Shown: positions 2,807 to 6,936 of the stretch, one piece after another
Position numbering within the stretch: the first letter of the stretch is position 1
Layout of the letters: every line of letters begins with the position of its first letter
Origin: Promethearchaeota archaeon
Lineage (GTDB): Archaea; Asgardarchaeota; Lokiarchaeia; Sigyniarchaeales; SOKP01
Assembly (NCBI GenBank): GCA_013375475.1
Contig: JABXKD010000035.1
Span: 1-28,359, forward strand
Reading direction: 5' to 3'
DNA length: 28,359 nucleotides
Notes under the pieces: model-generated
The model's database searches: none
Told to the model about the DNA's origin: nothing
Seen by the model: only the letters and a program-made list of their open reading frames with translations
Program-made: the position numbers and the translations under genes

Positions 2807-2913
2807 GGAAGCTTTAAGGACTGGATACCCTTTAGACCTTCTAGATGAAGAGTTGGCAATATGAAATCTGTATTAAGCAGATTGATGATAATACTGATCT
2901 GCTCTGATCTTTT
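2807..2913 (+). ncRNA. Candidate box C/D-like (kink-turn) small RNA with an extra 5' hairpin
   Basis: Ordered motifs: C-like ATGAAGA (2845-2851), D'-like ATGA (2861-2864), 7-bp hairpin AATCTGT/GCAGATT, C' TTGATGA (2882-2888), CTGA (2894-2897) and D CTGA (2904-2907), then TCTTTT. The 5' hairpin at 2816-2840 uses G-U pairs, which favours the + strand. GC content is higher than in the flanks. Confidence 0.6.
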
Positions 2914-3018: not shown

Positions 3019-3840
3019 TTATAGACTTAAAACATCTTTCATTGAATAAATACGGATTTCATTTTGTTTAGCGATAAATTTAATTGCTTTTATTGCCCCG
3101 GCAGCGAAGCATCCTCTACTATGAGATTGATGTTTCAATTCAATTCTTTCACCGGGTCCAGCGTAGAGAACAGTATGATCGCCAACAATATCACCGCCTC
3201 GAACAGAATGGATACCTATTTCGTTTTTAGCACCCACTTTCCTTTTATTAGGTCCCTTTGAACGTCCAAATTTTATACTTTCCTCTGGATCGCACCTAAG
3301 AGTATCACAGATTGTATTAGCAATCATCAATGCTGTCCCTGAAGGCACATCTGCCTTGCGATGATGATGACTTTCAATTACTTCAATATCCCACTCCTTC
3401 AAGTAGCTTGCTAATATGCTAGAGATTTTAAACAGAATATTGACTCCAGTAGCCATATTTGGTGATATTATAGCTGGAGCTTTGTACTTCTCTACAAGTT
3501 TTTTGAATTTACCTAAAAAATCATCGGACATAGCAGTTGTCCCAATAACGCACCGTATACCATTTTCAACACAAATTAAGCAATTTTTTTCGGTAGCCTT
3601 AGCGACTGTGAAATCGACAACCACATCTGGTTTAGTTTCGCTAATAACTTCTTGAAGATTATTAACATCTTTTATGGTAACCTTATCAGGATCATCGATT
3701 GCAATCAAAGAGCCTAATTTTTTACCTATTTCGGTTAAGTCGCATGCAGCTACAACCTGTATTTCACTATCAGTAATTGCGAGTGAAGAAATTAATTTTC
3801 CCATTGATCCCGTTGGACCTAGTATTAGCAACTTTATCAT
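3019..3840 (-). CDS. dapB: 4-hydroxy-tetrahydrodipicolinate reductase
   Basis: GPTGSMG Rossmann motif, DVVVDFT, VIGTT, SPNMATG, the ESHHHRKADVPSGTA signature, RGGDIVGDH, FAAGA. Confidence 0.96.
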   Translation of the reverse strand: MIKLLILGPTGSMGKLISSLAITDSEIQVVAACDLTEIGKKLGSLIAIDDPDKVTIKDVNNLQEVISETKPDVVVDFTVAKATEKNCLICVENGIRCVIGTTAMSDDFLGKFKKLVEKYKAPAIISPNMATGVNILFKISSILASYLKEWDIEVIESHHHRKADVPSGTALMIANTICDTLRCDPEESIKFGRSKGPNKRKVGAKNEIGIHSVRGGDIVGDHTVLYAGPGERIELKHQSHSRGCFAAGAIKAIKFIAKQNEIRIYSMKDVLSL

Positions 3841-6592: not shown

Positions 6593-6791
6593 TTTAGAGC
6601 TAATTTAAAGAGCTTTCCTAAGGAAGTTAAATATAACCTAATTTATTAGATTTAACAAAAACTGCTTAGATGGAATAAAGAAATAAAAAAATTAAAAATC
6701 GAAAAAAGATTTGGATCATTATTATTGATATTTTATGATTTTATTTTTCATTACGAAAGCATAATTTATCAATTTACTCCTCGAATTTAAT

Positions 6792-6865
6792 GGGAGGGTG
6801 GTCTAGCTTGGTATGATTCCTGGTTTGGGACCAGGTGGCCGGGGGTTCGAATCCCCCCTCTCCCA
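6792..6865 (+). tRNA. tRNA-Pro (anticodon TGG)
   Basis: Acceptor stem GGGAGGG/CTCTCCC plus discriminator A. D arm GTCTAGCTTGGTATGAT. Anticodon stem CCTGG/CCAGG with loop TTTGGGA (TGG at 6826-6828). T arm GGGGG-TTCGAAT-CCCCC. No intron and no encoded CCA. Followed by TTTT. Confidence 0.97.
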
Positions 6866-6936
6866 TTTTCCTACTTCTCTTTCTTAAGGAATGCTAACTT
6901 AAATAATACGAATAGAAGATTTAAAAGGAAAATGGA

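Follow-up and report, generated by a model that had tools for sequence, protein, structure and literature searches.

The 28,359-nt window considered here, by which we mean the whole stretch of DNA that was analysed, carries between its genes lysA and dapB a gap without annotation, and this gap raises the question of whether it encodes an RNA and, if so, what such an RNA might do in the cell. A sequence-only reading of the window had proposed that the gap holds an unannotated, L7Ae-binding RNA of ~110 nt, either an extended methylation guide or a U3-like RNA chaperoning rRNA, and that the host is probably an Asgard archaeon. As to the host this proved right: its close relatives are represented by metagenome-assembled genomes of Promethearchaeota, which are Asgard archaea, and the genome of the window has a G+C content of 32.5%. 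Below we describe the gap element as a genuine, unannotated RNA gene that is found throughout one family, and we argue that its product most likely guides methylation as a box C/D RNA whose architecture is new and extended.

The RNA gene in the lysA/dapB gap

The element is 139 nt long and occupies positions 2788-2926 of the window on the + strand. The features to which we refer throughout are as follows.

1436-2749, + strand: lysA, diaminopimelate decarboxylase (Pfam)
2753-2764, + strand: promoter-like signal, with a BRE-like A-run at -35 to -32 and a TATA-like T-A/T-AAA at -28 to -24, counted from G2788
2788-2804, + strand: 5' arm of the closing helix P1; in 64 distinct sequences 96.6% of cells are paired, and 14 of 17 pairs show changes on both sides
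2807-2842, + strand: hairpin 1, stem 2807-2819/2830-2842 with a 10-nt loop; 10 of 13 pairs change on both sides
2823-2829, + strand: loop word GGAUACC of hairpin 1, identical in 64 of 64 full-length copies
2845-2851, + strand: box C, AUGAAGA; AUGA.G (2845-2850) invariant or nearly so in 65 aligned copies
2852-2860, + strand: 9-nt spacer in the D' guide position, variable, with only G-R-C at 2855-2857 conserved
2861-2864, + strand: box D', AUGA, with invariant GA
2865-2883, + strand: hairpin 2, canonical stem of the predicted internal C'/D' kink-turn; 5 of 7 pairs change on both sides
2885-2891, + strand: box C', AUGAUAA, with AUGA (2885-2888) invariant
2892-2903, + strand: D guide, 12 nt, core 2893-2902 nearly invariant; 13 bp (2 G.U) with the organism's own 16S
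2904-2907, + strand: box D, CUGA in 64 of 65 aligned copies and CUAA in the remaining one
2910-2926, + strand: 3' arm of P1, with the same covariation as the 5' arm
2927-2951, + strand: T-rich, terminator-like stretch with TTT at 2927-2929 and T7 at 2944-2950; most of 63 loci have T-rich runs after this arm
3019-3840, - strand: dapB (Pfam), followed by dapA (Pfam)
6791-6866, + strand: tRNA-Pro (anticodon UGG); nothing else in the window reaches an Rfam gathering score

When the gap was compared by BLAST with 40 relatives, positions 2782-2939 were recovered at 77-93% identity in 21 of the 24 genomes of the same genus and, beyond low-complexity matches, nothing was recovered in the 16 genomes of other families. 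The conserved block in the alignment of 22 loci is sharp-edged and has a 17-nt inverted repeat (2788-2804 / 2910-2926) at its borders; the size of ~110 nt given earlier is corrected by these edges to 139 nt. A covariance model built from 21 genus sequences then identified one full-length copy in each of 105 genomes among the 131 of the family, with matches in 10 of the 13 genera outside the window's own and hence in 11 genera in total, and none in 19 genomes of three sister families (Infernal, with the stricter filters on). Within the genome itself a search for paralogues returned four matches, among which only the 2788-2926 locus is convincing; a second RNA of the same architecture is absent from it.

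The helices of this RNA covary strongly. In 64 distinct sequences fitted to the covariance model, a procedure that leans towards structure, 94.5% of cells form standard pairs, compared with at most 51% when the partners are slid, and both sides have changed in 31 of the 48 pairs; an independent MAFFT alignment gives 93.7% pairing, compared with at most 54% for the slid control. The arms of P1 have in some genera been swapped for unrelated yet complementary sequence. Many single changes in P1 produce a G.U pair on the + strand where the opposite strand would have C.A, and since these variants are G.U-compatible on the + strand only, we take the RNA to be the + strand. P1 is a continuous helix without a bulge-helix-bulge processing motif, hairpin 2 is longer by ~15 nt in one genus, and the loop of hairpin 1 is kept as GGAUACCC or UGAUACCC in f3 and f2, two families of the window's own order. 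Folding of the single sequence yields the same helices at -37 kcal/mol (z = -3.9).

These results bear out the proposal of an unannotated RNA in the gap, by its presence across the family, its covarying helices and its promoter- and terminator-like flanks. The motifs from which that proposal was made are all in place, namely the complementary segments 2816-2825/2831-2840, ATGAAGA (2845-2851) and, 9 nt further on, ATGA (2861-2864), then the hairpin 2865-2871/2877-2883 with six Watson-Crick pairs and one G.U, TTGATGA (2882-2888) and CTGA (2904-2907). The homologue search that it called for finds boxes and stems conserved among the relatives, with helices that covary. One of its helices needs to be redrawn: the 5' hairpin AAGG/CCTT (2816-2840) is possible in the window's sequence but absent from relatives, in which the conserved stem is 2807-2819/2830-2842.

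The flanks suggest that the gene may be expressed on its own. Upstream of the element, the promoter-like positions are conserved across 63 loci that represent 11 genera, and the spacing of the A-run and T-A/T-AAA is what we take to be the geometry of an archaeal BRE/TATA promoter, at the expected distance from TATA to start. The independent transcription signals claimed from the sequence thus stand as to the promoter- and terminator-like flanks, A/T-rich TATA-like words being present upstream and T-runs downstream, but the A/T-rich word that had been taken as TATA is part of the inverted repeat. In 58 of 64 loci the element is preceded on its own strand by lysA, at a distance of 33-76 nt in 50; in 8 loci the gap to lysA is wider (179-1,745 nt), as if other DNA intervenes, and at one of these, in G008, inspected by eye, the promoter-like segment stays with the RNA away from lysA. 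A 151-nt RNA-Seq contig that derives from a relative (8 differences, 4 gaps, depth ~5) covers 2788-2925 plus 4 and 7 nt, which we regard as a weak hint of a discrete transcript. Two further contigs bridge the end of lysA and the element; they come from libraries X1 and X2, which are labelled metatranscriptomic and flagged as probably DNA, and they were therefore set aside as evidence of RNA.

We note a hot spot immediately downstream of the RNA gene, at which single-gene inserts of ~1.1-1.6 kb differ among relatives (L023:705-2064 in G020, L009:2197-3645 in G016 and L089:3172-3300 in G061; also in G014 and G004). Their products are a 370-aa protein with a 4Fe-4S domain, a 458-aa protein without a Pfam family and an N6 DNA methylase. 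Some of the inserts are flanked by a second, partial copy of the 3' half of the RNA, an arrangement reminiscent of DNA that integrates beside an RNA gene and thereby duplicates the attachment site.

Box pairs and scaffold

All four boxes keep their GA, with the exception of the single copy that has CUAA as box D. Covariation links base 7 of box C to the base that precedes box D (A-U in 42 copies, U-A in 11, unpaired in 10), and box D' reads ACGA or CCGA in relatives from other families. Box C' had been read as TTGATGA (2882-2888), leaving a 15-nt spacer; we prefer AUGAUAA at 2885-2891 with a 12-nt spacer, since 5 of the 21 genus sequences, and many of the remaining copies, have an A in place of G2884, the base on which the former reading relies for its sheared pair. 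The preferred register, in which two other families have AUGACGA or GUGACGA, yields a standard kink-turn: hairpin 2 supplies the canonical stem, and beyond it come a 3-nt R-A-U bulge and the G.A and A.G pairs, both of them invariant. Departures from the consensus (RUGAUGA/CUGA) fall at position 5 of box C, position 6 of box C' and position 1 of box D'. Box C and box D have the bases for tandem sheared G.A pairs, and AUGA and AUGAUAA flank the covarying hairpin 2 in the manner of an internal C'/D' motif. Taken together, the conservation of the boxes supports an RNA with two box pairs that should be able to form kink-turns. An RNA of the L7Ae-binding type with two such pairs is what the sequence-only reading had described; the box pairs are indeed conserved and binding of L7Ae itself is predicted. 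The core C/D proteins are encoded in the genome: the genes for fibrillarin (264 bits) and Nop (197 bits) are adjacent on contig C211, and a gene of the L7Ae family (82 bits) is found on contig C246.

The manner in which the box C/D pair is embedded appears to be unusual. A 17-bp helix joins the two ends of the RNA, hairpin 1 stands between this helix and box C, and 2-5 variable bases connect to box D. In the alignment, boxes C and D have no conserved canonical pair immediately next to them; the sequence leading into box C is the 3' strand of hairpin 1, and that leaving box D runs into P1. Since hairpin 1 is closed under the kink-turn and the ends of the RNA exit via a third helix on the non-bulged strand, the topology would be that of a k-junction, which the cited parts of PMC10573300 and PMC4005666 describe as a kink-turn with a third helix on its non-bulged strand. 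We therefore suspect that the C/D junction is a k-junction, an arrangement that would supply the terminal stem expected of a C/D guide next to boxes C and D. If it is modelled on the TPP riboswitch type, the C helix would correspond to hairpin 1, the NC helix to the box C/D stem and the third helix to P1; the Asgard RNA, as judged from its secondary structure, differs from this type in its linkers of 2-5 nt. In the literature searched we found no report of a k-junction for a C/D RNA, and a search of open-access full texts returned no paper on Asgard C/D RNAs.

With canonical archaeal C/D sRNAs, the nearest of which by E value is Pyrococcus sR44 (RF01129), the Asgard RNA shares the box order C - D' - C' - D, the GA for two kink-turns, a 12-nt guide before box D, the N+5 rule and the presence of L7Ae, Nop5 and fibrillarin genes in the genome. 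Such sRNAs are compact, of 50-70 nt, according to the cited part of PMC7994747, whereas the Asgard RNA measures 139 nt and has a 17-bp outer helix as well as a 36-nt hairpin before box C. Its D' spacer of 9 nt is without a target, its boxes depart from the consensus, and its C'/D' motif is closed by a real stem-loop instead of a short loop. Of the archaeal geometry, with two spacers of about 12 nt and a length of 50-70 nt, it keeps the 12-nt D spacer but neither the second spacer nor the length. No Rfam family reaches its gathering score in the gap, and the best matches below threshold (E up to 10) are sR44, far under its gathering threshold at 19.7 of 45 bits (E = 0.011), and the yeast snoRNA snR56 at 20.5 of 54 bits. 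The Rfam check proposed with the sequence-only reading hence yields weak C/D-type matches and none to U3.

Comparison with U3 snoRNA was invited by the suggestion of a U3-like RNA. Both are C/D-type RNAs with a 5' extension and two kink-turn motifs. The Asgard RNA, however, has no conserved antisense to the 5' region of 16S or to its leader, and its 5' extension is a closed hairpin, not single-stranded A/A' boxes. For the 5' part we found no conserved rRNA complementarity: the sole match of 11 nt (2846-2856 to 16S 491-501) includes box C and is lost in relative G120, which has an identical 16S site and a different spacer. With no Rfam match to U3 at E up to 10, the suggestion of a U3-like chaperone was not upheld.

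The D guide and its proposed target in 16S rRNA

The 13 nt that end at box D pair, with 2 G.U, with the organism's own archaeal 16S on contig C222. This own 16S (C222:102936-104338, L024) contains a run of 10 N at ~931-940, just upstream of a GGUAUCC word, and since searches of it miss part of the 5' strand of helix 34, sites were ranked in the complete 16S of the closest relative, G008 (L137). In the latter the target of the D guide is the best site by a wide margin (-20.5 kcal/mol). Random 12-mers find a 12-bp match with at most 2 G.U somewhere in 16S + 23S with p = 0.0075-0.012, and the guide-16S match taken alone is only suggestive. A genome-wide scan for half-motifs with rRNA complementarity gave 63 real and 62 decoy matches, and consequently has no power to find further guides.

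What the relatives add is conservation in the register of a guide. The conserved core lies exactly at -2 to -11 from box D while the neighbouring positions vary, and it is the most conserved single-stranded part of the RNA; variant cores are present in 5 genomes, all of them without an assembled 16S. The target falls within the 3' strand of a long-range helix drawn there by the Rfam archaeal SSU model and alignment, which we take to be helix 34 of 16S rRNA, and it is invariant in the 16 family 16S genes that could be read across the region. The D guide accordingly has the 10-12 nt next to box D, the complement in rRNA and the N+5 target that a C/D guide would need. The 9-nt spacer in the D' position presents a different picture: site ranking in the complete 16S gives it no outstanding or conserved rRNA target, and a pairing with the 5' strand of helix 34 that can be drawn by hand falls outside the best-ranked sites. 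This spacer can also pair with part of the D guide, 2 of the 9 pairs changing on both sides, and such internal pairing would have to open for guiding.

By the N+5 rule, the D guide would select a G in helix 34, in the guide context and register of yeast snR56 (RF01188). In the Rfam consensus the two guides align base for base and in the same register to CUGA, and the selected G stands in the same short rRNA word. From this shared word and the rRNA structure, G1428 of yeast 18S and the selected Asgard G are presumably homologous rRNA sites. That snR56 directs Gm1428 of yeast 18S is given in the cited part of PMC4344503 and in a table of PMC5699541. On the other hand, snR56 is a eukaryotic snoRNA, the Asgard RNA scores 20.5 bits against a gathering threshold of 54, and the likeness is one of the guides; convergence on a conserved rRNA site is as possible an explanation as common descent.

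The same guide recurs outside the family. A pattern composed of a C'-like box, the guide core and CUGA is matched by 89 of the 135 genomes of the family and, among the other families of the phylum, by 12 of 265; a reversed-pattern control gave 1 match in 400 genomes. In f25, f17, f21 and f29 the motif is found inside canonical-looking C/D sRNAs, with the guide in the D' position, and in f25 the best 16S site of the second guide is the opposite strand of helix 34. These sRNAs (L159-L164, L170-L172) have the core CUGA(C/U)CUGC one base before CUGA, from which it follows that the same 16S nucleotide would be selected. They differ from the window's RNA in that their guide is in the first (D') position and their length roughly 60-95 nt, with short terminal stems, no hairpin 1, no long outer helix and a second guide whose best site, in f25, is the opposite strand of helix 34. 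Among them L170 (G292), L171 (G296) and L159 (G232) look like canonical double-guide RNAs with one guide to the 3' strand of helix 34; the other guide of L170 has its best site in the 5' strand, and L171 and L159 carry a similar second-guide core.

Several further observations concern the rRNA genes and other possible guides. Contig C263 (2265-6910; L025, L026) of G000, the genome of the window, carries a complete bacterial rRNA operon (16S, two tRNAs, 23S, 5S) that scores best with the bacterial Rfam models, and we conclude from these scores that C263 is a contaminant contig in an archaeal assembly; G000 is without an assembled archaeal 23S. The 16S genes of G015, G004, G055, G058, G120, G094, G064 and G012 were matched piecewise, the breaks falling at the same model positions (496/497 and 828/829) and some of the pieces being set apart by short gaps; introns, masked stretches or assembly breaks could each account for this. 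A strict scan for half-motifs (C-like box, 11-13 nt, CUGA) gave 95 in the genome. Only 7 of them lie between genes, and these 7 include 3 of the 4 best duplexes. Two further intergenic half-motifs, at C228:29531-29552 (+) and C77:9667-9690 (+), form duplexes of 11-13 bp with 16S or 23S through their guides and may belong to other C/D sRNAs.

A proposed single-guide RNA and the competing readings

We propose, with a probability of roughly three in four, that the RNA is a single-guide box C/D RNA for 2'-O-methylation of a G in helix 34, built on an extended, k-junction-like scaffold. Transcription from its own promoter would start at about G2788 and stop within the T-runs that lie beyond 2926. 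Two kink-turns with tandem sheared G.A pairs would form, one between box C (2845-2851) and box D (2904-2907) and the other between box D' (2861-2864) and box C' (2885-2891); L7Ae would bind to them, and Nop5 and fibrillarin would be recruited. The 12-nt guide that separates C' from D would pair with the 3' strand of helix 34 in 16S, and fibrillarin would add a 2'-O-methyl group to the G that faces the fifth guide base, counted upstream from box D. The D' side is degenerate, with its 9-nt spacer and no conserved target, so the RNA would work as a single guide. In this account the secondary structure, the conservation, the invariant boxes, the complementarity to 16S, the flanking signals and the genes for the proteins are observed, whereas we infer protein binding, methylation, the three-dimensional junction and the transcript ends. 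Of the two functions suggested by the sequence-only reading it is the extended methylation guide that becomes the best reading, by virtue of the guide, the boxes, the covariation and the recurrence in other families.

Let us consider what else the RNA might be. It might be a chaperone for ribosome assembly, in spirit like U3, U14 or snR30, that holds segments of pre-16S with or without methylation. The guide would then hold the 3' strand of helix 34, while the loop of hairpin 1 would hold the GGUAUCC word ~25 nt beyond the 5' strand. This thought draws on the loop word GGAUACC, which does not vary among the 64 full-length copies and is kept in two other families, and on its perfect 7-nt complement in 16S, which is the best 16S site of the loop and invariant in the 16 family 16S genes; the canonical relatives, in which the second guide is best at the 5' strand of helix 34, moreover provide a precedent for two-point binding. 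Yet a given 7-mer is expected by chance, on our estimate, ~0.09 times per 16S, and 23S also holds one; since the loop and its complement are both invariant, there is no covariation signal between them, and neither a U3 match nor conservation of the 11-nt match of the box C region to 16S lends the idea further weight. We regard a chaperone as unlikely, and treat the match of the loop as no more than a lead to a possible accessory anchor on 16S. An RNA that binds L7Ae without being a guide, as a 3'-UTR element of lysA or as a regulator or sponge of L7Ae, with its rRNA complementarity fortuitous, seems to us quite unlikely. The close association with lysA described above (58 of 64 loci, 33-76 nt in 50) and the two bridging contigs labelled metatranscriptomic would fit it, and L7Ae is reported to bind kink-turns in mRNAs in the cited part of PMC5539422. 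The libraries of the bridging contigs are, however, flagged as probably DNA, and the promoter-like signal keeps a fixed distance to the element and moves with it when other genes intervene. Nor does this reading account well for the presence of the same guide in unrelated contexts in other families, or for a guide core that is conserved beyond every other single-stranded part.

Lastly, the element might not be an RNA gene at all, but a miniature mobile element or recombination site with 17-bp terminal inverted repeats. Such repeats are present, and the differing single-gene inserts just downstream of it in relatives, flanked by partial duplicates of the 3' half, are what one might look for in such a site. 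Against this, the element is single-copy in the genome, its arms are not repeated elsewhere in the genome and its genomic place is fixed across 11 genera; variation in the arms is compatible with G.U pairing on a single strand, covariation of the arms persists where their sequence has been replaced altogether, and the internal helices covary too. We consider this reading very improbable, and return to the single-guide C/D RNA as the preferred one.

A more far-reaching scenario may be sketched, although as a whole we hold it to be rather doubtful. In one Asgard order, an ordinary double-guide sRNA for helix 34 might have been rebuilt into a single-guide RNA as large as those of eukaryotes, with a three-way k-junction at its box C/D pair and with the loop word GGAUACC of the added hairpin as a second, non-methylating anchor on 16S beside helix 34. 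The resulting RNP would have two roles, methylation and the chaperoning of the 3' major domain as it closes. Since the G predicted to be methylated matches the snR56 (Gm1428) site, this could also be the first candidate for a particular pair of guide and site that Asgard archaea and eukaryotes share by descent.

Irrespective of that scenario, a family-wide C/D RNA of 139 nt means that snoRNA-like elaboration exists on the archaeal side, here in the form of an extra hairpin, a closing helix that is long, a C'/D' motif closed by a stem and a single working guide. The covariance model can be used to annotate the gene in more than 100 genomes, and the RNA is a natural candidate for asking whether proteins of the L7Ae family assemble on a k-junction. 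For the biology of these archaea, the finding predicts a 2'-O-methylated G in helix 34 of Asgard 16S rRNA, apparently at the same site that is methylated in yeast.
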